Assembly (NCBI GenBank): GCA_026416115.1
Contig: JAOAFU010000034.1
Coordinates: forward strand, 1-49,018
Origin: Bacteroidales bacterium
Lineage (GTDB): Bacteria > Bacteroidota > Bacteroidia > Bacteroidales > DTGW01
Direction: 5' to 3'
DNA: 49,018 nt
Shown here: positions 17,689-43,064 of the stretch, piece after piece
Numbering within the stretch: the stretch's first letter is position 1
How the letters are laid out: the number at the start of each line of letters is the position of its first letter
The notes under the pieces: model-generated
Database searches by the model: none
The model's input: only the letters and a program-made list of their open reading frames with translations
What the model was told of the DNA's origin: nothing
Program-made: the position numbers and the translations under genes

Positions 17689-19017
17689 TTATTGAGCAAG
17701 AATAGTTTTTTGGCTAATATAGTGGAAATGGGGTCCGAAACGTTCGAAAGCTGCTTTTTCGAGCGACTCCTGATGCATAGGATGAGCAATGCTAATGAGT
17801 AATCGGGCACGTTCCTGTAAGCTTTTACCATAAAGATTTACAGCCCCATATTCGGTTACCACCCAATGAATGTGAGCACGCGTCGAAACCACTCCCGACC
17901 CAGGCAAAAGGGTTGGACAAATTTTACTTATCCCTTTAGGTGTAATACTGGGCATAGCTATAATAGCCTTACCCCCCTTCGAACGCGAGGCACCGTATAT
18001 AAAGTCTACTTGACCTCCAACACCAGAATAATGTTTTGTACCTAATGAGTCGGCTCCAACCTGACCGGTTAAATCGATTTGAAGTGCTGAATTAATAGCG
18101 GTAACTTTAGGGTTTTGGGCGATAATAAAGGGATCGTTGGTATATCCTACATCCATCATCAGTACCTGGGGGTTATTGTGGATGAAGTCGTAAACTTTTT
18201 GTGAACCCATAAGGAAAGTAGCAACAAGCTTGCCTTTATCTATTGCTTTGTTAGCACCGTTGATTACTCCTTTTTCAACCAGAGGTAACACCCCATCTGC
18301 AAACATCTCGGTATGAATACCCAAATTTTTATGATTACCCAGCTGAGCAAGCACTGCATTAGGGATAGCACCGATTCCTAACTGCAGACAAGCTCCATCC
18401 TCGATTAACTCGGCACAATGCTTTCCGATAGCTGTTTCAATTTCGTCGGGCACGTTAAAATGTGCCGGCTCGAGTGGGGTGTTGTCTTCAACAAAAATAT
18501 CGATCATTTCCATCGGTATCAATGCATCGCCAAAGGCACGTGGCACATTGGGATTGACAACGGCTATAACTGTTTTAGCCATTTCAACTGCAGCTAGCGT
18601 AGCATCGACTGAGGTTCCCATCGATACGTATCCATGTTCGTCGGGGGGACTTACCTGAATCATTGCTACATCGCAGGGTAGGTAACCATCACGATAAAGA
18701 CGCTGGGTTTCGCTCAGAAATACCGGAATATAGTCGGCATATCCGCTTTGAACAGCACATCTTACATTGCCTCCAACAAAAAATGCATCGTGTTGAAAAA
18801 TTCCCTCAAACTCAGCATCAGCATAGGGTGCAGGTCCTTCGGTATGCAAATGATGAATGTGTACATCGAAAAACTCTTTTCTTCTTCCTCTCTCAATTAA
18901 TGCTTTTATCAAACATTGAGGAGCCGAAGCAACACTGCTAAAATGTATGTGGTCGCCCGATTTGACAATCTTTACGGCTTCTTCGGGGCTAACAGTTTTA
19001 TAATTTTTAACGATCAT
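17689..19017 (-). CDS. Acetyl-CoA hydrolase/CoA-transferase family protein (4-hydroxybutyrate CoA-transferase-like)
   Basis: LQLGIGAIP, LGIHTEM (catalytic Glu), INSALQIDLTGQV, SGVGGQVDF, VVTEYG, IAHP. Substrate cannot be assigned. Confidence 0.9.
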   Translation of the reverse strand: MIVKNYKTVSPEEAVKIVKSGDHIHFSSVASAPQCLIKALIERGRRKEFFDVHIHHLHTEGPAPYADAEFEGIFQHDAFFVGGNVRCAVQSGYADYIPVFLSETQRLYRDGYLPCDVAMIQVSPPDEHGYVSMGTSVDATLAAVEMAKTVIAVVNPNVPRAFGDALIPMEMIDIFVEDNTPLEPAHFNVPDEIETAIGKHCAELIEDGACLQLGIGAIPNAVLAQLGNHKNLGIHTEMFADGVLPLVEKGVINGANKAIDKGKLVATFLMGSQKVYDFIHNNPQVLMMDVGYTNDPFIIAQNPKVTAINSALQIDLTGQVGADSLGTKHYSGVGGQVDFIYGASRSKGGKAIIAMPSITPKGISKICPTLLPGSGVVSTRAHIHWVVTEYGAVNLYGKSLQERARLLISIAHPMHQESLEKAAFERFGPHFHYISQKTILAQ

Positions 19018-28965: not shown

Positions 28966-31900
28966 ATGAAACTACTCAGCCACTTTTTATTTCTACGCCG
29001 TTATCTGAAGACGGCATTTTCAATGGGTTTTTTTATCATGATGTTCCAAGGATTTCTGCTTGGACAATCCGATGGAATACCTCGAGGAGCCCAATTACCT
29101 TACATTCGCTATGAGTCCGAAAATGGACAGTATGGTGGTGGAGCCTCATTACAGCAAGCACCAACCTTTGATCAAAATCTTATTGCTTCCGAGGCCTCGA
29201 ATCAAAAGTATGTTAGTTTACCATCCAATGGTTCGTATGTGCAATGGACAACAACTGCCATTGCGCGAGGTGTTACGCTTCGTTTTACCATGCCCGATGA
29301 CAATACGGGTAACGGACTCTCCGGCTCGCTAAGCTTTTATGTGGGAAGCACACGTGTAAAAGTCATTAACCTATCGTCGTACTGGGCCTATCAATATTTT
29401 CCTTCAGGTCAGTACGAACCAGTGCAAACCTATTCGGCAGGAGCCAAAACTTTTATGCGCTTCGACGAGGTGCATTTTCGGCTTGATAATCCTATTCCTG
29501 CTGGTAGCGTAGTGCGCATTGTAAAAGAGAATGGCGATAATATTACTTATGGGGTCGATTTTATTGAATTGGAAGATGTACCAGCAGCCTTACCGGCCCC
29601 TACCAATTCGCTTAGTGTAACATCCTATGGAGCTGTGCCCGACGATAATAACGACGACCTTGCTGCTTTTAATGCATGTCTTGCAGCAGCTGCTGCACAG
29701 GGTAAAAATGTATATATCCCTGCTGGGAGGTTTATCCTTAGCGACAAATGGATAGTAAATGTGAGCAACATGAAAATACAAGGTGCCGGGATATGGTACA
29801 CTGAGCTATATTTTTCGACCGACCGTCAGTTCTATGGGGGTATCATGGCACGTTCGACCAATGTCGAAATCTCGGATTTTTATATGAATACTGCCAACAA
29901 CGATCGTTTTAAATACGACGAAGCCAATGCCCGGGTACCTGGCGATCCTTATAAAATTTATAAAGGTTTTATGGGTACCTATGGTAGTAATTCCAAAATA
30001 CATGATGTTTGGATTGAGCATTTCGAATGTGGTATGTGGATTGGTGGATATGATCCTCCTTATCCTATCGATGTAACGGATGGACTCATAGTTTCGAGAG
30101 CACGTATTCGAAATAATTATGCCGATGGGGTAAACTTTTGCCAAGGTACCTCAAACTCGGTTGTTGAGTATAGTAGCATTAGGAATAGCGGCGACGATGG
30201 CCTGGCCATGTGGCCTAATAATTTCATGAATGCACCCCAGGAACGAAACAATATTTTCCGTTACTGTACTATTGAAAATAATTGGCGCGCTGGTGGTATT
30301 GCTATTTTTGGTGGTACAGGACATCAAATTTACCGCTGTATTATAAAAGACGGCGTTGCAGGTTCGGCTATTCGATTTACTAACGATTTTCCAGGATATA
30401 CTTTCGAACAAAATGCACCTAAAATTATCTGTACCGACAACTATATCGAGAATTGTGGTACGAGTTACGATCTTTGGAATCAGAAACGTGGGGCTATTGA
30501 GCTCTATACTCCAAACGGCATTTACGATGTAGAGTTTAACAATACCATCATCATCAATTCGCAACGCCACGCAATTCAATTGTATGGCAATATTCGCAAC
30601 ATGGTATTCAATAATACTACTATTGATGGTACCGGTATGGACGCTTTTGTCGATCAACCGACGCTCGACGACTGGGGTGGTTTTGGTATTTTAGCTCAAG
30701 CAAGCGGTAATGTCACTTTCAATAATGTTAGCTTCAATCGAATAGAATCGTACAAGGCAGGTACCGATCCCATTTGGGGAAATATTAAAAATCACAACAC
30801 TGCTTTTGTAATAGTCGTAAACAATACCAATGTTCCATTAACTGGTATCAGTCTTACCCCTACCTCTCTTTCGATAGCCGAAGGACAAACTTCACAGCTA
30901 ACAGTTACTTTTACACCTACGAATGCTACCAACAAGAATCTAACGTGGACATCATCTAATACCAGCGTAGCAACCGTGGTAAGTTCTGGTACTGGGTTAG
31001 CTACCGTAACTGCTATTCGTACGGGCACTGCCACCATTACTGTTACATCGGCCGACGGTAATTTTAGTCGTACTTGTCAGGTAACCGTTACACCAGCTGT
31101 AAACATTCAGGCTACCGACCCCGATGCTGCAGAGGGCGGTAATACCGGCACTTTTGTGATAAGCACTTCTTCAACCGCATCCAATATTACTGTTGGGTAC
31201 ACTATTAGCGGTACTGCATCGGCTTCAGACTATACTCCTACTCTATCGGGAAGTGTAACCTTGACACCGTCGGCCCCTAGTGCTACCATTATAATTACTC
31301 CAGTAGACGATAATGTTTTTGAAGGTAGTGAAACCCTTACTTTAACCTTAAGTCCAGGTACAGGTTATGCCCTGGGAGGCAATACATCGGCTACTATCAC
31401 TATTGCTGATAATGATAACCCGCCCTGCACTGCACCCATCATTGCTTATACTACTACAGCACCTGTTATCGACGGAAATATCGATAATATTTGGTCATCG
31501 GCACCTGCCTCCGCTATCAATAATGTGATTCTCGGAACTCGTTCGGCCGATTACTCGGCACAGTGGCGTGCTCTATCCGACAATAATAACCTGTATGTCT
31601 TGGTTGAAGTTAATGATGGTCAAAAATTCAACGACTCGGGCACAAGCTGGTGGGAAGATGATGTAGTTGAAATATTCTTAGACGGAGATAATAACAAGGG
31701 TACAACTTACGATGGTCTCAACGACTTTCAGTTAGGTTTCCGATACAACGATAATGTAGTTCAGGTTGGAGGAAATTCGGTTAACCGAACTACGGGAATT
31801 CAGTTCCGTACGGTTTCGACCTCTACAGGCTATATACTCGAAGCAAGTATTCCATGGGGAACAATTGGGGTAACACCTGCAATTGGCAAACGAATTGGTT

Positions 31901-33687
31901 TTGAGGTCGAAATTGACGATGATGACAACGGTGGTACACGCGATGCACAATATGCTGCTTTTGCTACAACCACCACTGCCTGGTCTAATCCTTCAGTTTT
32001 TGGCTCTGTATACATCACTACCTGTAGCTCCAATGTCGTTCCAGTAACAGGAGTGTCGGTTAGCCCGACAACAGCCAATATTTCGGTAGGAGGCACGGTA
32101 CAGCTAACGGCAACTGTATCGCCAGCCAATGCTACCAATAAAAACGTAAGCTGGAGTAGCAACAATACGGCGGTAGCAACAGTCAATAGCAGTGGCCTTG
32201 TAACGGGCGTATCGGCAGGCACGGCTACGATAACAGTTACGACTCAGGATGGAGGGCGAACAGCTACATGTACGGTAACCGTAACTTCGTCGACTGTTCC
32301 AGTAACAGGAGTATCGGTTAGTCCGACAACAGCCAATATTTCGGTAGGAGGCACAGTACAGCTAACGGCAACTGTATCGCCAGCCAATGCTACCAATAAA
32401 AACGTAAGCTGGAGCAGCAACAATACGGCGGTAGCAACGGTCAACAGCAGTGGCCTTGTAACAGGCGTATCGGCAGGAACAGCGACAATTACTGTTACCA
32501 CCCAGGATGGAGGTCGTACAGCTACTTGTGCAGTAACAGTTTCTGCACCATCGCAGACACCTTATAGTGGTTCCCCCATAAGCATACCCGGCACTATTGA
32601 AGCAGAAAATTTCGATAATGGTGGACAAAATATTGCCTACTACGATACTGATGCTACCAACAATGGAGGACAATATCGTACCAGCGAAGCTGTCGATATT
32701 GAAGTATGCTCGGCTGGTGGATTCAATATCGGATGGATGTACAGCGGTGAGTGGCTCGAATACACTATCAATGTCACTACATCCGGTAATTACAACTTCG
32801 ACTGTCGAGTAGCTTCTGCAGTTGGAGGTTCGTTTGTGATCTTTATTGATAATGTTGATGTTTCGGGTACGCTCAACGTACCGAACACCGGAGGATGGCA
32901 AGTTTGGCAAAGCGTTACTCGTAGTGGGGTTGCATTAACTGCCGGAACACACATATTGAAAATCCAAAGTAATGGCGGGATGAATCTCGATAAAATTCTC
33001 ATTTCATCGGCCACTTCCACCAATACATACCGTATAAAGAATCGCTGGCAAAATACATACCTGTATGATGCAGGAGATAGAGTAAGATATGCTTCAACAG
33101 CTTCAAATACAACCTACAACTGGCAACTCGAAAGTCTGGGTAACGGGCAGTATGAGATAAGAAATGTTTCGACAGGCGAATACATGCACATCGAAAATCT
33201 GCTGGGTTATGTACAATGTACTGCCCGTACACCAGGTTGGATGAGTTCGAGATGGACGCTTGAAGATGCAGGTAGTGGTTTTGTTCGTATCCGTAACGTA
33301 TGGCAGCCGAGCTATTACATTCATATCGAAAATTTGCAAAACCAGGCACAATATGGCACTATTAATTCTGCCTGGTGGAGTGCAATGTGGTTGCTCGAAC
33401 CAGTGAGTGGATCATCGAGACAGTTAGTCGATGTAATTGTGCCCGAAAGACAAATGGTTAGCTTATTTCCAAATCCTGTCAGCGAGGGTTGGGTCAGGGT
33501 AGAGATCCCCAATCTAAATCGTAAGGCCGAAATACGAATTCTCGACTATCAAGGTAGAACGGTTTTACATACCAGCGTTAACTCTGTCGAAAGCCGTCTC
33601 GATTTATCAGGATTAAAAGCTGGAGTATATATGATTCAAATTTTGCACGAAGGCAATAGCTATGTTTCAAAGCTGATGATTCAGTAG
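28966..33687 (+). CDS. Multimodular T9SS-secreted beta-helix glycoside hydrolase (GH87 alpha-1,3-glucanase/mycodextranase-like) with Big_2, Calx-beta, CBM9-like, CBM6-like and ricin-type domains
   Basis: Signal peptide ending LLG-Q; RGAQLPYIRYESE; SVTSYGAVPDD, VYIPAG; ADGVNF, GDDGLAMW; three Big_2 repeats; DDNVFEGSET (Calx-beta); APVIDG, DVVEIFLD (CBM9-like); IPGTIEAENFDNGG (CBM6-like); C-terminal FPNP, GVYMI, SKLMIQ (T9SS CTD). The GH family call is less certain than the architecture. Confidence 0.75.
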   Translation: MKLLSHFLFLRRYLKTAFSMGFFIMMFQGFLLGQSDGIPRGAQLPYIRYESENGQYGGGASLQQAPTFDQNLIASEASNQKYVSLPSNGSYVQWTTTAIARGVTLRFTMPDDNTGNGLSGSLSFYVGSTRVKVINLSSYWAYQYFPSGQYEPVQTYSAGAKTFMRFDEVHFRLDNPIPAGSVVRIVKENGDNITYGVDFIELEDVPAALPAPTNSLSVTSYGAVPDDNNDDLAAFNACLAAAAAQGKNVYIPAGRFILSDKWIVNVSNMKIQGAGIWYTELYFSTDRQFYGGIMARSTNVEISDFYMNTANNDRFKYDEANARVPGDPYKIYKGFMGTYGSNSKIHDVWIEHFECGMWIGGYDPPYPIDVTDGLIVSRARIRNNYADGVNFCQGTSNSVVEYSSIRNSGDDGLAMWPNNFMNAPQERNNIFRYCTIENNWRAGGIAIFGGTGHQIYRCIIKDGVAGSAIRFTNDFPGYTFEQNAPKIICTDNYIENCGTSYDLWNQKRGAIELYTPNGIYDVEFNNTIIINSQRHAIQLYGNIRNMVFNNTTIDGTGMDAFVDQPTLDDWGGFGILAQASGNVTFNNVSFNRIESYKAGTDPIWGNIKNHNTAFVIVVNNTNVPLTGISLTPTSLSIAEGQTSQLTVTFTPTNATNKNLTWTSSNTSVATVVSSGTGLATVTAIRTGTATITVTSADGNFSRTCQVTVTPAVNIQATDPDAAEGGNTGTFVISTSSTASNITVGYTISGTASASDYTPTLSGSVTLTPSAPSATIIITPVDDNVFEGSETLTLTLSPGTGYALGGNTSATITIADNDNPPCTAPIIAYTTTAPVIDGNIDNIWSSAPASAINNVILGTRSADYSAQWRALSDNNNLYVLVEVNDGQKFNDSGTSWWEDDVVEIFLDGDNNKGTTYDGLNDFQLGFRYNDNVVQVGGNSVNRTTGIQFRTVSTSTGYILEASIPWGTIGVTPAIGKRIGFEVEIDDDDNGGTRDAQYAAFATTTTAWSNPSVFGSVYITTCSSNVVPVTGVSVSPTTANISVGGTVQLTATVSPANATNKNVSWSSNNTAVATVNSSGLVTGVSAGTATITVTTQDGGRTATCTVTVTSSTVPVTGVSVSPTTANISVGGTVQLTATVSPANATNKNVSWSSNNTAVATVNSSGLVTGVSAGTATITVTTQDGGRTATCAVTVSAPSQTPYSGSPISIPGTIEAENFDNGGQNIAYYDTDATNNGGQYRTSEAVDIEVCSAGGFNIGWMYSGEWLEYTINVTTSGNYNFDCRVASAVGGSFVIFIDNVDVSGTLNVPNTGGWQVWQSVTRSGVALTAGTHILKIQSNGGMNLDKILISSATSTNTYRIKNRWQNTYLYDAGDRVRYASTASNTTYNWQLESLGNGQYEIRNVSTGEYMHIENLLGYVQCTARTPGWMSSRWTLEDAGSGFVRIRNVWQPSYYIHIENLQNQAQYGTINSAWWSAMWLLEPVSGSSRQLVDVIVPERQMVSLFPNPVSEGWVRVEIPNLNRKAEIRILDYQGRTVLHTSVNSVESRLDLSGLKAGVYMIQILHEGNSYVSKLMIQ
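32038..32541 (+). repeat. Tandem duplication of a Big_2 Ig-like domain (2 copies, 258-bp period)
   Basis: Copies start at 32038 and 32296. The first 78 aa are identical, with only synonymous nucleotide differences. Confidence 0.95.
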
Positions 33688-33748: not shown

Positions 33749-34609
33749 TTACTTTGCTGCAATGTGTCTTTCGGCATGATAGGATGAGCGCACCAGAGGT
33801 CCGCTTTCGACGTAGCTAAAGCCTTTTGAAAGACCTATGTGCCGATATTTTTCAAAAATATCGGGATGTACATATTCGACCACAGGTTTATGAAGTTCAG
33901 ATGGTGGTAAGTATTGACCAATGGTAAGTATTTTAACCCCAGCCTTTCTCAGATCGTCCATGGTTTGAATAACTTCAGATTCGGTTTCGCCTAATCCAAG
34001 CATAAATCCCGATTTAGTTACAACCCCTTTGGCCGAGAGATAGGTAAGCATTTCCAAGCTTCCACTATAGGTCGAAAGGCTGCGAATTCGAGGGGTAATA
34101 CGTTCGACTGTTTCTACGTTGTGCGAGATAACTTCAGGGCCTGCGTCGATAATCTTATCGAGCCACTCGAGCTTACGTCGAAAATCGGGAATGAGCACTT
34201 CCATGGTTACACCAGGATTGATCCTTTTGATAGTACGGATGGTAAGTGCCCAGAAGGCTATCCCGCCATCTTCGAGGTCGTCGCGTGCTACCGAGGTAAT
34301 AACGCAATGTTTAAGTTGAAGAATTTTTATAGCTTGAGCAACACGTCCAGGTTCTGCCCAGTCGACATCGGCAGGAATTGCTGTACGAACATTGCAAAAA
34401 CGACAGTTTCGAGTACAACTATCGCCTAAAATCATAAAAGTTGCCGTACCAGCGTTCCAGCATTCACCTTTATTCGGACAATTGCCACTGCTGCAAATAG
34501 TATTAAGCTGATATTGTTCAATTAGCTTTTTGACTTTAGAATAGTTTTCGCCCTTGGGTAAGGGTACTTTCATCCAACGAGGTAAACGGAAGGTTCGCAA
34601 TTGTTCCAT
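33749..34609 (-). CDS. lipA: Lipoyl synthase
   Basis: Auxiliary cluster CSSGNCPNKGEC, radical SAM CTRNCRFC, HNVETV, KSGFMLGLGE, GQYL, VRSSY. Confidence 0.96.
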   Translation of the reverse strand: MEQLRTFRLPRWMKVPLPKGENYSKVKKLIEQYQLNTICSSGNCPNKGECWNAGTATFMILGDSCTRNCRFCNVRTAIPADVDWAEPGRVAQAIKILQLKHCVITSVARDDLEDGGIAFWALTIRTIKRINPGVTMEVLIPDFRRKLEWLDKIIDAGPEVISHNVETVERITPRIRSLSTYSGSLEMLTYLSAKGVVTKSGFMLGLGETESEVIQTMDDLRKAGVKILTIGQYLPPSELHKPVVEYVHPDIFEKYRHIGLSKGFSYVESGPLVRSSYHAERHIAAK

Positions 34610-34703: not shown

Positions 34704-35378
34704 ATGGCTGTTGCAAATACAACCTATCGTAAGGGCGAACAATTGTGTCGCGTAATAAATTTGGAATGGATTACTGAGTCTACCTATATTCTTCGTTTCG
34801 AGCGCAACGATACAGTTTTCCTTCCGGGACAATATCTTACGTTAAGTCGTGCCGATTGCCTCACGGCGCGAGAATATTCGATATATAGCGGCAAAACCGA
34901 CGATTTTTTTGAGGTGCTCATCAAAGCAGTTCCAGAAGGCATTGTTTCGCAGCAGTTAAAAGAGCTTAAAACTGGCAATTTAATTCGTGTAGGAGGGCCG
35001 CATGGTAATTTTTGTCTGCCTGCACAGGCTCCAACTAATTTCCGTTATCTTTTTATAGCTACCGGAACAGGTATTGCGCCTTTTCACAGCTTTGTTAGAT
35101 CATATCCAGGTCTCGATTACACCGTCCTTCATGGCGTGCGAGTGCAAAAAGAAGCCTATGGTATACATGATTTTGATCCTCAACGACATATTCTGTGTAC
35201 GTCGAAAGACAATGGGAAATTCAATGGCAGGGTTACACAATATCTCGAAACAATGGAAGTTTCGCCCGATACTTTATGCTACCTTTCGGGCAATAGCCAA
35301 ATGATTTTTGAAGCCTATGCTATGCTACGTAAAAAAAATATCCCTGTCAAGCAGATTTTTACTGAGGTATATTTTTAA
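34704..35378 (+). CDS. FAD/NAD(P)-binding oxidoreductase, ferredoxin/flavodoxin-NADP+ reductase superfamily
   Basis: PGQY, REYS (RxYS), GIVS, GPHG, ATGTGIAPF, C-terminal EVYF. Confidence 0.85.
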   Translation: MAVANTTYRKGEQLCRVINLEWITESTYILRFERNDTVFLPGQYLTLSRADCLTAREYSIYSGKTDDFFEVLIKAVPEGIVSQQLKELKTGNLIRVGGPHGNFCLPAQAPTNFRYLFIATGTGIAPFHSFVRSYPGLDYTVLHGVRVQKEAYGIHDFDPQRHILCTSKDNGKFNGRVTQYLETMEVSPDTLCYLSGNSQMIFEAYAMLRKKNIPVKQIFTEVYF

Positions 35379-36241
35379 ATCCATTTAATTTCGATATCCC
35401 TAGAGCTAAAAAACTCCATAACCTGCTGAGGTTTGATGGTAAATCCTAGAACATAACCACCACCCCCCGAACCACACAGCTTAGGATAAAATATATTTTC
35501 TTCTCTTCCAACTTTTAAAGTGGAAACCATATGGGATGGAAAGAGAAAAGGAAAAATTTCGAATTCGAGAAGGCTAAGCTCTTTTATGCTCTTGATAAAA
35601 TGCTTTGGTGCATAAAATAACTCATTAATGCATTGATTGTTAATCTCAATAAGTCGTTGGACAAGAGAATTAAATTGGTCATTGTTACGAAAATTGGACA
35701 AAAATTGTGTTACATAATCTCGGGTAGCAGCTTTAATATTAGTATCGATTAGAAAAATTTTGAAATCGAGTTTGTCGAGGGAGAAAGGAACTAATGAAAC
35801 CTCCTGTTGCGATATGTGTATTGGTTTTTGTAAAAAACAAACTAACGGATCGATTCCCGAGCTGGTACCGTGCATGAATTGCTCCATCAGAGCGAGCTCT
35901 TTTTTGATTTCTGATAAGGGTTTTAGGAACTCATATGAGTAATTGCGATATATTTCGGCAGTTACTGCGCCCGAACTTCCTAAGCCATATTGAACCGGAA
36001 TATCGGAAATGATGTCTAATCCAGTTTCCCAGTCTTTTTTTAGCTTTTTTAAATCGAGAAAATTGAAAATTGAAGGTTTGGATAAAAGAAATTGAATAAA
36101 GTCACATACCAATTTGTTTGAATCGGAAGGTTTAGAACTTTTAACTAGTTGACAGGTAAAGCCTGGAAAAGGTATTGCAAAAGCGTTTGAGCCAACTAAA
36201 ACTGTATACTCTCCAAAAAGCAAAATTTTGGCAGGACTCAT
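35375..36241 (-). CDS. mvk: Mevalonate kinase (GHMP family)
   Basis: PAKILLFGEY, IPVQYGLGSSGA, HGTSSGIDP, KLCGSGGGG; directly downstream of mvaD. Confidence 0.82.
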   Translation of the reverse strand: MSPAKILLFGEYTVLVGSNAFAIPFPGFTCQLVKSSKPSDSNKLVCDFIQFLLSKPSIFNFLDLKKLKKDWETGLDIISDIPVQYGLGSSGAVTAEIYRNYSYEFLKPLSEIKKELALMEQFMHGTSSGIDPLVCFLQKPIHISQQEVSLVPFSLDKLDFKIFLIDTNIKAATRDYVTQFLSNFRNNDQFNSLVQRLIEINNQCINELFYAPKHFIKSIKELSLLEFEIFPFLFPSHMVSTLKVGREENIFYPKLCGSGGGGYVLGFTIKPQQVMEFFSSRDIEIKWI

Positions 36242-36249
36242 ATTGCAGA

Positions 36250-37314
36250 TTATTCGAATTTATGAAAGAATATTTGTTCTGGTCCTGAACCAAGCTTATC
36301 GAAAATAAATCTTGCCGAACTGCTAATAAACGGGCGAATACTTTCGTCGATAAATTGCCGAATGGGTACAGATTCCTCTATGGAGTAAAGCAAATGTACA
36401 TTAGGTCCGGCATCGAGGGTAAAGCAAAGAGGGATATCTGTATGCTGACGGAATTTGCGGACTTGCTGGATAATAAAAAGTGTGTCGGGTTCCATTAAAA
36501 TCCACGAAGGATTTGAAGTCATGAGTAATGCATGAAGTTGAAGTGCTTCGTTTTCAACAATTTCGGCAAAACGTTTACGGTCGTCGCATAATAAGCATCT
36601 TAAGATTTCCTCATGGTGTAAATTAGCCTGCCGGTAACGTGCCAGATGAAAGGGATGATTCTCCATCAGGCGATGCCCCTCGGAACTGGAAATGGCTTTC
36701 GGGGTATCGGAAACTACAATAATTGTGTCGGCATAATTTAAAAAAGTAGAATGCACTATTTTATTGATAGGAGTTGCATATTCGTCGGACGAACGGCGCA
36801 CGTGCATAGTACGACCCCAGCTGACATATCCTCCATATATCGAACGAGCAGCACTACCCGAACCTAATCGTGCAATATACGAAGCACGTTCGTAGAAAGC
36901 ATAGCCTATACCTTCGAACAATTGTTCCTCGACACTGCATAAACACAGGGCAAGCGAACTCATAAAAGCTGCCGATGAAGCAATACCCGATGAGTGAGGA
37001 AATGTGTTGTGACTCTGAATAGCTAAATGATATTTTTTTAAAAATGGCATTTCTTGTTCGGCAAGATAGGTGAGATACTTTTCAATTCGCTGCTGAAATG
37101 CCTCACTTTGTTTCCCTTCGAAAGTGAAATTTACAACTGGTCCTGAATCGCTATTTAAGGGTGAAAATAGAACTTCGGTAACCGATACTGAATCAGATAA
37201 AGTCATACTCAAGGAAGCATTGGCCGGTAGCTGATGCCCATGTTTACCCCAATATTTTATCAGGGCAATATTAGAAGGACTTTTCCACTTAACCTGAAAG
37301 CTGCTTTTTTGCAT
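36250..37314 (-). CDS. mvaD: Diphosphomevalonate decarboxylase
   Basis: PSNIALIKYWGK, GIASSAA, ARLGSGSAARS, SSSEGH, FTLDAGPNVH. Confidence 0.93.
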   Translation of the reverse strand: MQKSSFQVKWKSPSNIALIKYWGKHGHQLPANASLSMTLSDSVSVTEVLFSPLNSDSGPVVNFTFEGKQSEAFQQRIEKYLTYLAEQEMPFLKKYHLAIQSHNTFPHSSGIASSAAFMSSLALCLCSVEEQLFEGIGYAFYERASYIARLGSGSAARSIYGGYVSWGRTMHVRRSSDEYATPINKIVHSTFLNYADTIIVVSDTPKAISSSEGHRLMENHPFHLARYRQANLHHEEILRCLLCDDRKRFAEIVENEALQLHALLMTSNPSWILMEPDTLFIIQQVRKFRQHTDIPLCFTLDAGPNVHLLYSIEESVPIRQFIDESIRPFISSSARFIFDKLGSGPEQIFFHKFE

Positions 37315-37358
37315 GTGCCAATTTGGTTTAATTTTTTTGACAAATTATTATATTGTAA

Positions 37359-38285
37359 TTAATTTTTTTGTTTACATAACATTAGTTCTTTTAGCGGAAT
37401 AATAGTAGTAAATCCACGACCTGAAAAATAGGAGACAATTTCGTTGTTTTCAAGAGGAGAAACCACAAGCCAAAAATCGCCCCCCCATGCTCCCAGCGAT
37501 TTGATTTGTCCTGGAAAGGTTGGAAACAAAGTATCCTTTATTGGTTGTAAACCCAACTCTTTTGCAACAATTATTTCATGTTCACGGATGACATCATTTA
37601 ATTCTTTAATGTTAGTTGCTTTTATAAAATTGTAAGTAATTTGACTGATTTGTTTAAGGGTAGATTCACTGAAAGATTGGAGAGTTTTAATAGCTTCTTG
37701 GGTGTTTTGCTTACTACCGCTGTAAACAAGATACAATTGATCAATAAACGGTGGAAAATAATTTATCGGTTCAATTTTAGGTCTAAAGTTTTCTAAACTA
37801 TAGAGTATGGGAGTATTCACTGTTGCACAGGCTATGTCGTACCCCGATCCTTTAAACAATTGAAAATATAGGCGAAATGGATCAATTTCGGCCCATTGGC
37901 TTAAATTTACCATTAAGGTTGAGCTGCTTCCTAACCCCCAATTTATATTGAAATTACAAAAATGGGTAGTAACGTAGGAGAAACTATCATTTAGGAAAAA
38001 AGGGCTTTCGAGTCGAATATGCTGTAAAATTTGGATGATAAAATTTGCCTTGCTAATGTCGGTAGTCGATTCTATCTCGAAATTTGGAAGTTTCCATTTA
38101 GCTTCAAACCATAATCCGTTTATATCATAAGCTTTCCAATATAGATAGGGCTTTACCTCTTTTTTTTTATCGACGTGCATTTCTTGAAAACGGTTGAGAG
38201 GAATAGCCAGCCCTATTGCACCAAACATTATTGCATATTCGCCAGTAAGCAACAATTTTCCATTGGCTCTATAAACATTTTTCAT
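37359..38285 (-). CDS. GYDIA-type GHMP kinase, probable phosphomevalonate kinase
   Basis: GKLLLTGEY, WGLGSSS, GSGYDIACA, KSLGAWGGD; lies between HMG-CoA reductase and mvaD. Confidence 0.78.
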   Translation of the reverse strand: MKNVYRANGKLLLTGEYAIMFGAIGLAIPLNRFQEMHVDKKKEVKPYLYWKAYDINGLWFEAKWKLPNFEIESTTDISKANFIIQILQHIRLESPFFLNDSFSYVTTHFCNFNINWGLGSSSTLMVNLSQWAEIDPFRLYFQLFKGSGYDIACATVNTPILYSLENFRPKIEPINYFPPFIDQLYLVYSGSKQNTQEAIKTLQSFSESTLKQISQITYNFIKATNIKELNDVIREHEIIVAKELGLQPIKDTLFPTFPGQIKSLGAWGGDFWLVVSPLENNEIVSYFSGRGFTTIIPLKELMLCKQKN

Positions 38286-38287
38286 AG

Positions 38288-39598
38288 CTATACCTGCCTA
38301 TTTGAACGTAATTGCTGTAGAAATTCAGCAACAGCCTTGTAGCTTATATCGTGATTTTTAAAATGGTGCGAAGCTAGTTCCGACTCTGTTTGAGAAGCGT
38401 TGAGATGGTTGAGGATTTTAGTAAGATGCATTTTCATGTGTCCTTTCTGAATACCAGTCGTAACTAGCGCTCTTATAGCAGCAAAATGATTAGCCATACC
38501 CATTGCTGCGGCAATTTGCATTAAAGCAGGGGCGGTTGGGTTTCCAAGTATTTCAAGTGCTGTAGCAGCCATGGGATGTGCACGGGTAAGTCCTCCCACT
38601 GTACCCAAAGCAAGCGGTACCTGAAGAGTAAACCGGAAACGTCCAGTATAGATCTCGCATTTCGATAGAGAGGTATAAGTTCCCCCTCGAGCAGCATAGG
38701 CGTGTCCACCAGCTTCGATTGCACGAAAATCGTTGCCAGTAGCCAACACTACCGCATCGATGCCGTTGAAAATACCTTTGTTGTGTGTTACAGCACGATA
38801 GGGGTCGACTTGTGCAATTGCAATTGCTTGCGAAAATTTTTCGGCAAATTTCTTAGAACCTAAACCGGCCGATATGGGTTCAAGTTCATCAACTGGGCAT
38901 TCGACTGAACATTCTACTAAACATTGGGGGGTGTAGTTTGAGAGAATTGCCATATTTACCTCACAATCTGCAAGCCGATCGGTAAAATGCTCTTCAAAAA
39001 ATGCAGGAAGTTCTTTAGCCATGGTTTCGAGGCACGAATTAATATAGTTTGCACCCATGGCATCGGCTGTTTCGAAGTAAACCTGTATGCGATGATAATG
39101 ACGAATCAGGTGCGTATAATCGGAATACTCAATGTCCAATACACCACCACCTCTTTTCTTCATATTCTCGCTCAGATATTCAACGCTCTCGAGAAGTAGC
39201 TTTTTAAGTTCTTCCCAATATGATTCAAGAATTGCTGAATTACCTTCCCAAAAAAAATGAATTTGTCCTACTTTGGTTGTGCCTATTATTTTTGTTCGAA
39301 AGCCACCCCTGGTACTCCAGAATTTAGAGGCATAGGATGCCGCAGCAACAACCGAACTTTCTTCGGTTACCATTGGTACCCAATATTGTTGCCCATTGAT
39401 GTAAACATTGGGTACTATCCCCAGAGGAAGAAAGTAATTTGCTAAAGTATTTTCGGAAATATTATCGAGCATCTTTTGGGAACCACTCTCAATATCGAAA
39501 GCTTCCATACGATTTAGCAAATTCTCTGAGATTACCTGCATCTCGACTAATTTTTTTCTTCTTTCGGATTTCGAAAGTTTTGAGAATCCTTCAATCAT
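38288..39598 (-). CDS. mvaA: Hydroxymethylglutaryl-CoA reductase, class II
   Basis: ISEN, PMVTEESSVVAAAS, DAMGAN, ILSN, THNKGIFNG, GNDFRA, GTVGG, GIQKGHMKMH. Confidence 0.95.
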   Translation of the reverse strand: MIEGFSKLSKSERRKKLVEMQVISENLLNRMEAFDIESGSQKMLDNISENTLANYFLPLGIVPNVYINGQQYWVPMVTEESSVVAAASYASKFWSTRGGFRTKIIGTTKVGQIHFFWEGNSAILESYWEELKKLLLESVEYLSENMKKRGGGVLDIEYSDYTHLIRHYHRIQVYFETADAMGANYINSCLETMAKELPAFFEEHFTDRLADCEVNMAILSNYTPQCLVECSVECPVDELEPISAGLGSKKFAEKFSQAIAIAQVDPYRAVTHNKGIFNGIDAVVLATGNDFRAIEAGGHAYAARGGTYTSLSKCEIYTGRFRFTLQVPLALGTVGGLTRAHPMAATALEILGNPTAPALMQIAAAMGMANHFAAIRALVTTGIQKGHMKMHLTKILNHLNASQTESELASHHFKNHDISYKAVAEFLQQLRSNRQV

Positions 39599-39604
39599 AA
39601 CACA

Positions 39605-40756
39605 TTAAAGATATTTGCTGATTACCAATTTTAAGATCTCTGAAGTGCCTTCTCCAATTTGAAGGATCCTTTGATCGCGATAAAATCGTTCGATGTCCGA
39701 AGACTTAATAAGTCCGTAGGCGCCATGAATTTGAAGTGCCTGATCGGCAATTTCTTTAGCTATCTCGGAAGTATAAAGTTTGACAATGGCTGCTTCGCGA
39801 CCATAGGGTAGTCCTTGATCTTTTAACCAACAAGCATGGTAGAGCGTATTGCGAGCAAGTTCTATTTTAACTTGCATTTCGGCTAATTTAAAACTGATGT
39901 CCTGAAACGTAATAAGGGTTTTACCAAACTGCACTCGTTTTTTGGCGTATTTAACAGCCATCTCGTAAGCACCTTGTGCTAAACCAAGTCCCATGGCTGC
40001 TATAGAAAGCCTACCCGAGCCGAGCGTTTCGAGCATTATACGCAGGCCTTGTCCCTCCTGTCCCAGCAAATTTTCTGCAGGAACTTTACAATTATGAAAG
40101 TATACTCTACCTGTATCGGCAGCGCGCCACATCATTTTATTCAGGATGGGCTCTTTTTTATAACCCGGGGTGCTACTTTCTACCAAAAGGGTTGAATACA
40201 ATTTCTTCCCTGCTTGTTCGCCAGTACAGGCAAGCAAAGTCATACCTGCAGCTAGCGATGAGGACGAATTGGTAATAAAAATTTTTTCACCGTTAATTAT
40301 CCATCCATCTGTATTTTTTTCGGCACGTGTCGAAACATTTTTTGCATCCGAGCCCGCATTGGGTTCTGTAAGTCCAAATGCCCATAATTTACTACCATCA
40401 ATCAAACGAGGTAGAAAATATTTTTTTTGTTCTTCGGTACCGTAATGATAGATAGGTCCAAGTCCAAGTGAATTATGAGCTGCTACGGTAACTGCCTGCG
40501 AACCATCGATGCGAGCTAATTCTTCTACTGCTATGATATAAGAAAGTGTGTCTAAGTTTCGACCCCCGTATGTTTCGGGAATACACATACCAAATAAACC
40601 AAGCTCTCCCATTCGACGTGTAAGGTACTCGGAAAAAGTTGCCTTTTCATCAAGTTCTGCTGCTAAAGGTTGAATCTCGGTTTCCGCAAAATGTCTAATC
40701 TGTTCACGAAGAGCATGGTGACTTTCTTTTAGTAAATAATGATGCATTGTTTGCAT
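39605..40756 (-). CDS. Acyl-CoA dehydrogenase, probably branched-chain (isovaleryl-CoA)
   Basis: FGLTEPNAGSD, GEKIFITN, RVQFG, QIHGAYG, RDQRILQIGEGTSEI. The family is certain; the substrate is inferred. Confidence 0.88.
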   Translation of the reverse strand: MQTMHHYLLKESHHALREQIRHFAETEIQPLAAELDEKATFSEYLTRRMGELGLFGMCIPETYGGRNLDTLSYIIAVEELARIDGSQAVTVAAHNSLGLGPIYHYGTEEQKKYFLPRLIDGSKLWAFGLTEPNAGSDAKNVSTRAEKNTDGWIINGEKIFITNSSSSLAAGMTLLACTGEQAGKKLYSTLLVESSTPGYKKEPILNKMMWRAADTGRVYFHNCKVPAENLLGQEGQGLRIMLETLGSGRLSIAAMGLGLAQGAYEMAVKYAKKRVQFGKTLITFQDISFKLAEMQVKIELARNTLYHACWLKDQGLPYGREAAIVKLYTSEIAKEIADQALQIHGAYGLIKSSDIERFYRDQRILQIGEGTSEILKLVISKYL

Positions 40757-40769
40757 AATCTTTCGAAAA

Positions 40770-42800
40770 TTAGTTATTACTTATAGTAAACAATACTTGA
40801 TTTGCTTTAACATTTTCGCCTACTTTCACATGTATGCCATCTACAATTCCTTCGTCGTAGGCGGTAAGTTTATTTTCGGTTTTCATCGATTCGAGTACAG
40901 CCAGGATATCTCCCTGCTTTACTTTCTGGCCTTCTGAAACCAAAATTTCTACAACTTTACCCGGTATGGGCGCTGAAATATTTCTCGAATTATCAGTTGT
41001 AATTACAGGTTTTTCTAGAAATCGTTCATCGGTAGTTAAAAATCGGTTTAAAATTATAGCTTGTCCTTTTCTGCCTTTACTTTCAAGATATAGAGTACCA
41101 GATGGGCCGAATGCATAAAAAACCCGATAGACAAGAGCCTCATCTGACGAGGATTTAGCGTTTACTCGAATATCAAAAGAGTTGGGGATGGAGTGGGTTG
41201 GTTCGAAGTTTATGCTAAAAATTTGATTACCGATATTTACACTCAGATTATTTGAATTTGAAAAGTAATGATAATATATGTGAATTTCTTTGTCGGCTAT
41301 TTTCATGGATAGCGGGTAAATCATACGCCATCTTCCATATATTTGGGCAAAAGGTGATGAAAGTGTTTTGATTCGATGCTCGAAGTGTACAAAGGCAGAG
41401 GTTGCTAATAAAACCATCTCCGTACTATTTAAGGAAAAGTCGTGATCTATAGAGTCAATCAGTTGAGGTAAAAATTGCTGCAAACAGGTGGTGTGAATTT
41501 GATTTTTTTTGAAAAAATCTGAATTGATGCAGGCACGTAATAGTGGTAAATTGGTTTTAGCACCTAAAATAACTGTTTGGTTTAATGTTTCAATCATTTG
41601 CTCAATGGCCTGATTTCGGTCTGAAGCCTTAACAATAACTTTTGCTAAGAGCGAATCGAAATCAGTGTTAATTTCCTGACTATCTTGCAGATCGGCTTCA
41701 ATTCTGACAAACGGAATCTCCGGAAGTCGCACCAGTTGAATCGTCCCCCCGGTAGGTAGAAATTGATTAGCTGGATCTTCAGCACAAATACGGCACTCTA
41801 TCGCATGTCCCTTGGGAGTGATAACCGATTGTTCCCAAGGCAGTATTTCTCCCTGCGCCGAGCGGATTTGCCACTCAACAATATCGATACCCGTAATGCT
41901 TTCGGTTACTGGATGTTCGACCTGTATACGGGTATTTACTTCGAGGAAAAAATATTCGCCTGTGGGCAAAACAATGAATTCGACAGTTCCAACATTATCG
42001 TAACCCGTTGTTTCAATAAGTCGAACGGCATCGTTAAACATTTTTTCTCTGATATGGGAATCGACCGATACACAGGGAGCTTCTTCTATAATTTTCTGAT
42101 ACCTTCGTTGAATGCTACATTCCCTGTCGAATAAGTGAACTGCGTGGCCATGTTTATCGGCAAGTATTTGCACCTCAACATGCCTCACATTTTCGAAGTA
42201 AGGAACAACAAACAAGCGAGCATTACCAAAATAGGTTTGTGCTTCGAAAGCTGCCGAGAAAAGCTGCTGCTCAAGTTCTTCGCTTTTTCGTACGATTTTC
42301 ATTCCTCTTCCACCGCCTCCACTAGCTGCTTTAATAAGAAGAGGGAAGTTTAGCTTACGAGCTTCGTTCTTAAGTGCATCAGGCTCGCCCTGTAACATGG
42401 GAATGGTGGGAATACCCAATTCGGAGGCAAATTTTGTAGCTTCTACTTTGTTCGAAAGTTTCTCCATAGCCGTAGGCGAGGGGCCAATCCAAATTAACCC
42501 CCTCTCAATACAGCGTTGAGCAAAGAGGGGATTTTCGGATAAAAAACCATATCCAGGATGTATAGCATCGCAATCCCTTGATAGGGCTACTGTAATAATT
42601 TTGTCAATATTCAGAAAAGTCTCTTCTAACGAATTTCCTTCCAACAAAACAGCCTCGTCGGCATCGGTAATGTACTGCATTTCTCTGTCGGTCGGCACAT
42701 ATACAGTTACAGACTGTAAACCCATACGGCGTACAGTACGGATAATCCTTCTGGCTATTTCTCCCCGATTGGCAATTAAAACCTTTCGTATCAGTTGCAT
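40770..42800 (-). CDS. Acyl-CoA carboxylase alpha subunit (biotin carboxylase + BCCP), methylcrotonyl-CoA carboxylase-like
   Basis: LIANRGEIA, HPGYGFLSEN, GGGGRGM, RECSIQRRYQK, FLEVNTRIQVEHPVTE; C-terminal biotinyl domain APIPG, ESMKTE. Confidence 0.9.
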   Translation of the reverse strand: MQLIRKVLIANRGEIARRIIRTVRRMGLQSVTVYVPTDREMQYITDADEAVLLEGNSLEETFLNIDKIITVALSRDCDAIHPGYGFLSENPLFAQRCIERGLIWIGPSPTAMEKLSNKVEATKFASELGIPTIPMLQGEPDALKNEARKLNFPLLIKAASGGGGRGMKIVRKSEELEQQLFSAAFEAQTYFGNARLFVVPYFENVRHVEVQILADKHGHAVHLFDRECSIQRRYQKIIEEAPCVSVDSHIREKMFNDAVRLIETTGYDNVGTVEFIVLPTGEYFFLEVNTRIQVEHPVTESITGIDIVEWQIRSAQGEILPWEQSVITPKGHAIECRICAEDPANQFLPTGGTIQLVRLPEIPFVRIEADLQDSQEINTDFDSLLAKVIVKASDRNQAIEQMIETLNQTVILGAKTNLPLLRACINSDFFKKNQIHTTCLQQFLPQLIDSIDHDFSLNSTEMVLLATSAFVHFEHRIKTLSSPFAQIYGRWRMIYPLSMKIADKEIHIYYHYFSNSNNLSVNIGNQIFSINFEPTHSIPNSFDIRVNAKSSSDEALVYRVFYAFGPSGTLYLESKGRKGQAIILNRFLTTDERFLEKPVITTDNSRNISAPIPGKVVEILVSEGQKVKQGDILAVLESMKTENKLTAYDEGIVDGIHVKVGENVKANQVLFTISNN

Positions 42801-43064
42801 AATTAAAATTGTAACTACTGTATAACATACTTTTTGGGGTTTTGTTGCATCAGGCTTATAAAACTGTGAATTATCAAAACCTCCACAGGCTAAATGGGGT
42901 TAATTTGTTCTCTGTAATGTATGTGTTAATAATTTTTTTGTGCAGAATTTATCGTCGAAGTGATGCAACATTCAAAAATATGCGGTCGATTGATAATACT
43001 TTGATGTAACAATTGATATACTTACTGTATCAATATTTATACCTATCGATATGCGAAACCTACT

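Follow-up and report, generated by a model that had tools for sequence, protein, structure and literature searches.

A Bacteroidales gene cluster predicted to link leucine and isovalerate catabolism to the lower mevalonate pathway

The mevalonate pathway of the textbooks starts from three molecules of acetyl-CoA, which are converted by thiolase and HMG-CoA synthase (HMG, 3-hydroxy-3-methylglutaryl). A six-gene operon of a Bacteroidales bacterium raises the question of whether HMG-CoA may also reach this pathway by another entrance: the operon encodes an HMG-CoA reductase and lower mevalonate enzymes, preceded by a biotin carboxylase and an acyl-CoA dehydrogenase. It lies in the window analyzed here, which is the whole 49,018-nt contig JAOAFU010000034.1 (C51) of assembly GCA_026416115.1 (3.08 Mb, 252 contigs, 92.4% complete; genome G000 below). 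The original prediction for this locus was that isopentenyl diphosphate (IPP) is made from leucine or isovalerate instead of three acetyl-CoA. Our results suggest that the operon probably joins upper leucine/isovalerate catabolism to the lower mevalonate pathway. The conserved linkage of these genes and the lack of matches to a synthase or thiolase in this genome agree with that prediction, but the route would be a second IPP supply beside the methylerythritol phosphate (MEP) pathway and not the sole one.

The operon consists of six consecutive open reading frames (ORFs) on the minus strand, from 42800 to 35375, with intergenic spacings of 13, 6, 2, 44, and 8 nt. Gene identities were assigned with Pfam and NCBIfam profile searches of the window proteins; together with the ORF coordinates, they agree with the gene order, common orientation, and gaps proposed originally. 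All six ORFs are full length and the profiles are covered end to end.

40770..42800, minus strand: biotin carboxylase (BC) with BT-like linker and biotin carboxyl carrier protein (BCCP), 676 aa; predicted alpha subunit of methylcrotonyl-CoA carboxylase (MCC)
39605..40756, minus strand: acyl-CoA dehydrogenase (ACAD), 383 aa; predicted to convert isovaleryl-CoA to 3-methylcrotonyl-CoA
38288..39598, minus strand: class II HMG-CoA reductase (HMGR), 436 aa; PF00368, TIGR00532
37359..38285, minus strand: GYDIA-family GHMP kinase, 308 aa; NF040656; predicted phosphomevalonate kinase (PMK)
36250..37314, minus strand: diphosphomevalonate decarboxylase (MDD), 354 aa; MVD-like_N and MDD_C
35375..36241, minus strand: divergent GHMP kinase, 288 aa; predicted mevalonate kinase (MVK)
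42801..43012: gap separating the first gene of the operon from a divergent GH95 gene, 212 nt; presumed promoter site

Conservation of the linkage and the two endings of the module

Two scans of species-representative genomes with a GYDIA kinase gave 87 foreign loci, which we classified by tblastn with the window proteins. BC-BCCP, ACAD, and HMGR were found in the same order in 15 of these kinase-seeded loci, from Bacteroidales, Prolixibacteraceae, Sunxiuqinia, Salinivirga, and unclassified Bacteroidota metagenome-assembled genomes (MAGs). MDD follows the kinase in 14 of the 15 (L096 being the exception), and parts of the lower pathway were unmatched in L091 and L096. An MCC-beta-type carboxyltransferase (CT) and a crotonase (enoyl-CoA hydratase, ECH) lie directly upstream in 11 of the 15 loci, and two more are cut at that point by the contig end. 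A divergent type-2 IPP isomerase (IDI-2) stands between ACAD and HMGR, also in 11 of 15 (no Pfam match; TIGR02151, 199.9 bits). In its full form, of which L024 of Prolixibacteraceae is an example, the cluster would comprise nine genes (CT, ECH, BC-BCCP, ACAD, IDI-2, HMGR, kinase, MDD, and MVK), which are predicted to cover every step from isovaleryl-CoA to IPP and dimethylallyl diphosphate (DMAPP). The window and its two nearest relatives (L021 and L022) present a six-gene form.

We then searched with an alignment of 14 operon-linked ACADs, which yielded 80 further loci at 60-69% identity. IDI-2 or mevalonate genes lie downstream in 32 of them, 30 of which also present CT, ECH, or BC; another 27 present CT, ECH, or BC and no mevalonate genes, six are cut within 1.5 kb downstream, and 15 are standalone. 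Locus L145, of Saccharicrinis sp. FJH54, presents ACAD, IDI-2, HMGR, kinase, MDD, and MVK. The linkage first noticed in the window is thus widely conserved in Bacteroidia and goes beyond coincidence (15/87 and 30-32/80 loci). Loci without the mevalonate genes can end in one of two other ways: with an HMG-CoA lyase-like gene (NF004283, 165-197 bits) and 3-oxoacid CoA-transferase A/B (263.5 and 326 bits, over cut-off), or with an acetoacetate-CoA ligase (946.7 bits). Across all 167 foreign loci, ACAD is linked to mevalonate genes in 45, on 42 distinct Bacteroidia contigs (three loci repeat contigs of the kinase-seeded set), and the lyase is present in none of the 45. ACAD without mevalonate genes was found in 50 loci, of which 18 present the lyase and five more the acetoacetate enzymes alone (23/50); IDI-2 alone was not scored as a mevalonate gene in this split. 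The CT-ECH-BC-ACAD module ends in either of two ways that exclude each other, ketogenic or toward mevalonate. HMG-CoA is the starting point of both, which suggests that the module makes it, and we regard these endings as the strongest evidence for the proposed product.

The history of the linkage was examined on an HMGR tree (FastTree, midpoint rooting) of 95 rows, 40 with the module and the mevalonate genes in one cluster (fused) and 55 unfused. Three duplicate contigs, the C21 locus of G000 itself, and HMGR matches shorter than 1000 nt or with a stop were left out. The fused state requires three changes on this tree, as compared to a mean of approximately 31 when the labels are shuffled, and none of 500 shuffles gave a number as low. 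The window HMGR is joined by L021 and L022 (support 100) and next by further Bacteroidales MAGs (98). Under midpoint rooting the deep branches are made up of fused rows, with Flavobacteriaceae, Saprospiraceae, Bdellovibrionota, and a clade of Bacteroidales placed inside them, and the linkage is retained at about 46-55% HMGR identity. These results point to long retention of the linkage and not to repeated invention, and would be compatible with a single origin.

Enzymes of the operon and their candidate partners in the genome

Several of the predicted steps would require proteins encoded outside the window. The candidates in G000 are:

C21:7346-8902, minus strand: MCC-beta-type CT, 61% identical to the in-operon CT of Prolixibacteraceae
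C21:6499-7299: crotonase/hydratase (ECH), directly downstream of the C21 CT
C115:36925-37398: type-1 IPP isomerase (IDI-1), TIGR02150 111 bits (cut-off 105.8)
C26: etfB-etfA pair (electron transfer flavoprotein, ETF), beside the second ACAD of G000
C184: 2-oxoacid dehydrogenase E2 and fused E1 (branched-chain 2-oxoacid dehydrogenase type, BCKDH)

The window alpha subunit presents the Pfam domains Biotin_carb_N, CPSase_L_D2, Biotin_carb_C, and Biotin_lipoyl, and its best solved relative is the MCC alpha subunit of Pseudomonas aeruginosa (429 bits), with human MCC alpha at 418 bits (residues 4-663). G000 has only one other BC-BCCP gene, on C156, which adjoins its own carboxyltransferase. The three CTs of the genome are located on C21, beside the C156 BC-BCCP, and on C234, where the neighbor is a BCCP only. 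The window alpha and the C21 beta are the only unpaired carboxylase subunits, and they probably pair with each other, as judged by exclusion and from the co-operonic orthologues. The other two CTs are 33-34% identical to the in-operon CT of Prolixibacteraceae. The C21 CT scores 636-650 bits against MCC beta chains (human 8j4z, P. aeruginosa 3u9r, and Mycobacterium tuberculosis AccD1 4q0g), 439 bits against the beta chain of geranyl-CoA carboxylase (GCC), and about 250-280 bits against that of propionyl-CoA carboxylase (PCC). It appears to be of the MCC/GCC lineage and not of the lineage of PCC and acetyl-CoA carboxylase.

The hydratase of C21 matches ECH_1 (124.6 bits) and shares 34% identity with its in-operon counterpart in L024. 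That the carboxyltransferase and the hydratase would be encoded elsewhere had been anticipated, and an MCC-beta-type CT and a hydratase are indeed adjacent on C21. The neighboring stretch of that contig (C21:1-6447) encodes a DNA methyltransferase, a Fic-family adenylyltransferase, and a restriction-endonuclease-like helicase, which suggests that the missing genes of the operon landed in a variable, defense-type neighborhood.

The window ACAD presents the Pfam domains Acyl-CoA_dh_N, M, and 1. Its best solved relative is the butyryl-CoA dehydrogenase (Bcd) of Clostridioides difficile (5ol2, 354 bits), and clostridial and Acidaminococcus Bcd-type enzymes span 354-321 bits. Near its C terminus it carries the motif IGEGTSE, in which the catalytic Glu stands at the position used by short-chain and medium-chain acyl-CoA dehydrogenases (SCAD, MCAD) and by Bcd, and with Gly as the preceding residue. 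The motif is conserved as [IV]GEG[TS]SE in all 15 operon-linked orthologues of the kinase-seeded set and as [IV]GEGTSE in all 80 of the ACAD-seeded set, and the Gly precedes the catalytic Glu in every one of them. Rat SCAD and three other solved relatives (four of the five aligned) present IYEGT instead, as do the etf-linked ACAD of G000 on C26 and a paralogue in L175. The ACAD of Thermus thermophilus (PDB 1ws9/2cx9/2d29) is the only one of the five aligned solved ACADs with the IGEGTSEILKLVI motif of the operon ACAD, and this structure is a possible template for the substrate pocket.

In an ungapped alignment of human isovaleryl-CoA dehydrogenase (IVD; 1ivh, residues 363-387) with query residues 2-26, the Gly of the operon ACAD corresponds to IVD residue 374. 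Gly374 of IVD is reported to stand where other ACADs have a Tyr and to leave space for a branched substrate (Tiffany et al. 1997). Canonical IVD presumably has its catalytic Glu moved to helix G (Glu254 in human), with Gly374-Ala375 where other ACADs have Tyr-Glu. The operon ACAD has the Gly at position 374 but retains the Glu at the next position, and it scores low with IVD. It is Bcd-like and lies outside the canonical IVD family, and it may be a Bcd-lineage enzyme that converged on isovaleryl-CoA, as suggested by one residue and the gene context. Of the 80 ACAD-seeded loci, 63 have MCC-type CT, ECH, or BC genes beside the ACAD orthologue. The place originally given to this enzyme in the leucine route is consistent with its constant clustering with MCC genes; identity as a canonical IVD is not. 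We also observed that the ACAD is 89-90% identical to its counterparts in L021 and L022, the two nearest MAGs, as compared to only 50-72% for the five neighboring proteins, which could reflect either unusually strong constraint or recent exchange.

The mevalonate half was recognized with varying scores. HMGR matches PF00368 (289.7 bits) and TIGR00532 (271.7 bits, cut-off 259.95) and is 51-56% identical to the HMGR of Flavobacteriaceae. The GYDIA kinase matches NF040656 (308.4 bits, cut-off 225), a model of the type 'hypothetical equivalog', and in the majority of the 87 kinase-seeded loci this kinase has HMGR as its neighbor. The MVK and PMVK of Bacteroidota are described as found only in 2017 (Hayakawa et al., as cited in PMC6107057). 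MDD is over the Pfam cut-offs for both MVD-like_N (118 bits) and MDD_C (50.4 bits). The MVK-like protein matches GHMP_kinases_N (27.4 bits), and its gene is the last of the cluster in most related loci that reach that far. An ORF of 160 aa directly follows the MVK gene in three Prolixibacteraceae loci (L024:13028-13510, plus strand, and also L025 and L026), with approximately 70% mutual identity and no Pfam match.

The IPP isomerase had likewise been expected outside the window, and we found a type-1 enzyme on C115 and no type-2 enzyme over cut-off in G000. Among eight genomes tested, IDI-1 was over cut-off only in G000, G001, and G002, the three without an in-cluster IDI-2; the five with an in-cluster IDI-2 presented no IDI-1 over cut-off. 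The two types of isomerase are complementary across the tested genomes. The ORF of 344-360 aa upstream of HMGR in the relatives, which has no Pfam match, was considered as a novel substitute for the synthase and rejected as a divergent IDI-2 (TIGR02151, 155-200 bits).

Sources and fates of HMG-CoA and competing explanations

No thiolase, HMG-CoA synthase, or HMG-CoA lyase had been seen in the window, and whole-genome searches for these families gave no match on C51. In G000 as a whole, PF01154 gave no match to HMG-CoA synthase and TIGR01835 gave 27 bits at most, on a single FabH-like ORF of C236. The best Thiolase_N match (35.6 bits) was on this same ORF, with nothing at E <= 1e-20, and NF004283 found no HMG-CoA lyase at E <= 1e-20. 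HMGL-like Pfam matches exist on C220 and C196; the C220 gene was rejected as an HMG-CoA lyase, being a 2-isopropylmalate synthase (533.7 bits). We extended the search to 38 genomes: 16 with the fused operon, 10 other Bacteroidales with unfused mevalonate genes, five Flavobacteriaceae, two Saprospiraceae/Lewinellaceae, and five Bdellovibrionota.

HMG-CoA synthase (PF01154): fused 0/16; others 3/22 (two Oligoflexia, one Lewinellaceae)
HMG-CoA synthase (TIGR01835): none over cut-off anywhere; 130-164 bits in the same three others, <= 44.8 bits elsewhere
Thiolase: fused 4/16; others 18/22
HMG-CoA lyase-like (NF004283, E <= 1e-20): fused 0/16; others 16/22
MCC-beta-type CT: fused 15/16; others 18/22
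IspH: fused 15/16; other Bacteroidales 5/10; remaining genomes 0/12

Two of the 16 fused genomes are chromosome-level assemblies according to their record titles and, therefore, these absences are not merely gaps of draft MAGs. With no HMG-CoA synthase, thiolase, or lyase in G000, HMG-CoA would have one source (the module) and one fate (mevalonate). The MEP genes of G000 are over the curated cut-offs (dxs 759.6, dxr 481.3, ispG 449.5, and ispH 206.3 bits). Their absence had been put forward as potential strong support for the leucine-fed pathway, and all four are present. The operon route is therefore not the sole IPP source and probably represents a parallel, second one.

From the identities of the genes, their linkage and conservation, and the presence and absence of other pathway genes, we infer the substrates, direction, co-transcription, and physiological role of the operon as follows. 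Isovaleryl-CoA would be supplied from leucine through the BCKDH-type complex of C184 or as activated isovalerate. The Bcd-like ACAD, with the ETF of C26, would oxidize it to 3-methylcrotonyl-CoA, which the window BC-BCCP and the C21 CT would carboxylate with ATP to 3-methylglutaconyl-CoA. The C21 hydratase would then yield HMG-CoA, which HMGR, the MVK-like protein, the GYDIA kinase, and MDD would convert to IPP. DMAPP would come from the type-1 isomerase of C115 or from IspH. With the MEP pathway giving DMAPP, mevalonate-derived IPP could serve as chain extender even with little isomerase. An ATP-grasp biotin carboxylase domain acts in carboxylation only, and ATP drives the kinase and decarboxylase steps, which are irreversible. 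Given these steps and the lack of another HMG-CoA source or sink, the forward direction is the only coherent one. Plausible reasons to keep such a route beside the MEP pathway are that protein fermentation would offer a ready-made branched C5 skeleton at low cost and that IPP would be produced without the oxygen-sensitive Fe-S enzymes IspG and IspH.

A number of results weigh against this proposal. The assembly is 92.4% complete in 252 contigs, such that absences in G000 are no proof alone, and its full-looking MEP pathway leaves the organism with no need of the operon route. CT and ECH are located outside the operon in G000. G002, an operon-bearing MAG, matched neither IspH nor the MCC-beta-type CT. 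The window alpha subunit scores 402 bits against PCC alpha, so that MCC and PCC are barely told apart. The best NCBIfam model of the C21 hydratase (PRK05674, AtuE/LiuC-type; gamma-carboxygeranoyl-CoA hydratase) reached 191.3 bits with a cut-off of 426, MDD is just under the cut-off of TIGR01240 (168 vs 171.35 bits), and the best NCBIfam model of the MVK-like protein, the mevalonate kinase model TIGR00549, gave 89.4 bits over residues 2-265 (cut-off 163). The ACAD scores 215-240 bits with IVD chains, below the 354 bits with Bcd, and it retains the catalytic Glu where SCAD and Bcd have theirs, which leaves gene context as the only guide to its substrate. Finally, a sigma-70 scan of 42801..43012, the sole promoter-sized gap on the upstream side of the operon, found nothing above shuffled sequences, although the scan does not model Bacteroidota promoters. 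Promoter-like sites numbered 31 vs 24.5 +/- 3.9 in shuffles, again with Bacteroidota promoters outside the scan model, and terminator-like sites numbered 9 vs 8.0 +/- 2.4.

It is possible that the carboxylase and the ACAD serve ordinary catabolism of leucine or short-chain acyl-CoA, adjacent to mevalonate genes that are fed by an unrecognized HMG-CoA enzyme. This would be in line with the 27 of 80 ACAD-seeded loci where the CT-ECH-BC-ACAD module stands as a catabolic unit, with the separate location of CT and ECH in G000, and with the HMGR-kinase pairs of Flavobacteriaceae that lack the module. We consider such adjacency without coupling unlikely, however, since no HMG-CoA lyase with which catabolism could finish was found in any of the 16 operon-bearing genomes and since the FabH-like gene is the only conceivable cryptic synthase. 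The intergenic gaps of 2-44 nt, the recurrence of the linkage on 42 distinct contigs whose HMGR identities are about 46-55%, and the mutual exclusion of lyase and mevalonate endings also argue for coupling. Alternatively, the same architecture could act on butyryl/crotonyl-CoA or on citronellyl/geranyl-CoA as in the Atu pathway, in which case the substrate of the 'HMGR' would not be HMG-CoA. The overall Bcd-like character of the ACAD and the gamma-carboxygeranoyl-CoA model of the hydratase would fit this view, which we nonetheless find quite improbable: the CT scores far higher with MCC beta (636-650 bits) than with GCC beta (439 bits), the alternative ending with HMG-CoA lyase and acetoacetate-activating enzymes is the one expected for an HMG-CoA product, and the downstream kinases and decarboxylase are of mevalonate-pathway families.

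The operon might also be a silent or decaying relic whose mevalonate genes are disused given a working MEP pathway. The presence of the MEP genes would allow this, as would the loss of CT, ECH, and IDI-2 from the cluster in the lineage of the window relative to most relatives. However, all six ORFs are intact with complete profiles, they align to the two nearest MAGs without breaks (ACAD at 89-90%, the others at 50-72% identity), and the genes missing from the cluster occur at other sites, with CT and ECH on C21 and IDI-1 in precisely those three tested genomes that have no in-cluster IDI-2. A relic is very unlikely on this evidence. Reverse flux toward iso-branched fatty acids, which had been named originally as an alternative, is disfavored even more strongly, and we see scarcely any chance of it. 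HMG-CoA would then be dehydrated, decarboxylated, and reduced to isovaleryl-CoA, with the ACAD as reductase. Bacteroidota are rich in iso-fatty acids, and the nearest relatives of the ACAD are Bcd enzymes, which are enoyl-CoA reductases in anaerobes. A comparable route, alternative isovaleryl-CoA biosynthesis (AIB), is real in Myxococcus xanthus (PMC5389471). Yet AIB is described there with MvaS, a biotin-independent decarboxylase (AibA/B), and AibC, and not with a biotin carboxylase or an ACAD (PMC5389471). In G000, the reverse route would have no source of HMG-CoA in the form of a synthase or thiolase, and IPP is not convertible back to mevalonate. Moreover, an ATP-grasp biotin carboxylase has no role in decarboxylation, the BCKDH-type complex already yields isovaleryl-CoA, and the linkage to MVK, PMK, and MDD would be left unexplained.

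Known pathways, evolutionary range, and surroundings of the operon

The chemistry proposed here is already known as the leucine shunt into mevalonate, which labeling revealed for the sterols of Leishmania mexicana and the lipids of Halobacterium (review PMC8791446) and which was predicted for the archaeon Calditenuis (PMC12979851). The steps are the same: leucine to isovaleryl-CoA, 3-methylcrotonyl-CoA, 3-methylglutaconyl-CoA, HMG-CoA, and mevalonate. In these organisms, the shunt comes in addition to an acetyl-CoA route that has HMG-CoA synthase. To our knowledge it is not encoded as one unit in those organisms, and we know of no dedicated genetic unit for this side entrance in Leishmania or haloarchaea. 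Unlike these cases, both halves are fused here in an operon, synthase, thiolase, and lyase were not found, and the host is a bacterium with the MEP pathway. The Liu cluster of Pseudomonas (liuABCDE; MCC structures 3u9r and 3u9s) similarly groups MCC alpha and beta, a crotonase of the methylglutaconyl-CoA hydratase type, and an acyl-CoA dehydrogenase, and relatives in Bacteroidota and Ignavibacteriota present a full catabolic Liu version that ends in HMG-CoA lyase. The operon differs from it by the absence of the lyase, by a Bcd-like ACAD with a C-terminal catalytic Glu in place of an IVD-type enzyme, and by the HMGR and lower mevalonate pathway that follow the module, so that it would be anabolic and not ketogenic. 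In the Liu region of Halobacteriovorax we found CT, ECH, BC, and the lyase but no ACAD in that region.

The mevalonate half resembles the Bacteroidota-type pathway of Flavobacterium johnsoniae (Hayakawa et al. 2017, via PMC6107057), where a class II HMGR likewise stands beside a GYDIA kinase, with MDD and a divergent MVK. In contrast to G000, the Flavobacteriaceae sampled have no MEP pathway (IspH 0/5), their HMGR-kinase pair stands apart from the Liu module, and a thiolase and an HMG-CoA lyase-like gene are present. The AIB route of M. xanthus also joins HMG-CoA, 3-methylglutaconyl-CoA, dimethylacrylyl-CoA, and isovaleryl-CoA at the mevalonate branch point (PMC5389471), but in the opposite direction and with MvaS, LiuC, AibA/B, and AibC, whereas the window operon lacks MvaS and encodes a biotin carboxylase and an ACAD.

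In the full-text literature searched, which excludes most subscription journals, we found no bacterial operon described in which Liu and mevalonate genes are fused. What seems new, then, is not the chemistry but the joining of the Liu module with the lower mevalonate pathway in one bacterial operon where synthase, thiolase, and lyase are absent. This family would represent the first mevalonate pathway with isovaleryl-CoA as its only encoded entrance, and its full form a compact nine-gene cassette for isoprenoids from branched-chain acids. It also calls for caution in pathway-completeness calls during metagenome annotation. The mevalonate and MEP pathways are generally considered exclusive in bacteria outside Firmicutes and Actinobacteria (PMC6107057), and the 15 fused genomes with IspH constitute a further exception.

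A broader hypothesis is that the Liu-fed route is the ancestral and general HMG-CoA source of the GYDIA-kinase mevalonate pathway in Bacteroidota and Bdellovibrionota, which would leave the synthase-less, mevalonate-only lineages wholly dependent on the leucine branch. We regard this as possible but rather doubtful. In its favor, PF01154 was matched in only one of the 33 Bacteroidota genomes sampled and in none of the five Flavobacteriaceae, all five of which present an MCC-beta-type CT, and fused loci form a deep grade of the midpoint-rooted HMGR tree. Some Flavobacterium species are also reported without HMG-CoA synthase (PMC12016392, 2025); a non-homologous enzyme or an alternative HMG-CoA pathway is suggested for them, with none named, and the operon family offers a possible answer to this puzzle. 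Against it, a synthase is annotated in other Flavobacteriales (PMC12016392, PMC4026382). Elizabethkingia and F. branchiophilum are stated to have all mevalonate enzymes but one (PMC4026382), which argues against extending the absence of the synthase to all Flavobacteriales. The Flavobacteriales genomes concerned also present a thiolase and a lyase-like gene, which makes other routes conceivable, and the tree is only midpoint-rooted. If this hypothesis were true, the synthesis of undecaprenyl phosphate, menaquinone, and carotenoids would be obligately tied to the flux of branched-chain 2-oxoacids.

Two patterns among the genomes without the fused operon deserve mention. The five Flavobacteriaceae, the two Saprospiraceae/Lewinellaceae, and three Bacteriovoracaceae (G026-G030 and G033-G037) possess mevalonate genes and no IspH. 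They gave no HMG-CoA synthase match bar one, all present a thiolase and a lyase-like gene, and all but G036 an MCC-beta-type CT. In the two Oligoflexia, an HMG-CoA synthase-like ORF (130-136 bits with TIGR01835, 365-367 aa) adjoins a thiolase-like ORF (88-92 bits), at G031:C369:23691-25445 and G032:C15:41439-43185; the G032 match holds two TGA codons. This pair recalls what we take to be the archaeal thiolase/synthase gene pair.

The neighbors of the operon are ordinary chromosomal genes, with the divergent GH95 gene upstream and, farther off, LeuRS, DnaE, IleRS, and glycoside hydrolases. Such a setting is not that of an obvious mobile island. Two genes lie just downstream:

34704-35378, plus strand: small FAD/NAD-binding oxidoreductase
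33749-34609, minus strand: lipoyl synthase (Radical_SAM and LIAS_N)

L022 presents ORFs of equal size (224 and 286 aa) in a like arrangement downstream, a match by size and arrangement alone. Lipoate is the cofactor of the 2-oxoacid dehydrogenase presumed to supply isovaleryl-CoA, and the proximity of lipoyl synthase may be a coincidence. At 17 kb from the operon, the window encodes an acetyl-CoA hydrolase/transferase family protein (17689-19017, minus strand), a candidate CoA-transferase for the activation of isovalerate-like short-chain acids. Finally, two very long ORFs are found in the window, at 7150-11541 (minus strand, 1463 aa) and 28966-33687 (plus strand, 1573 aa).

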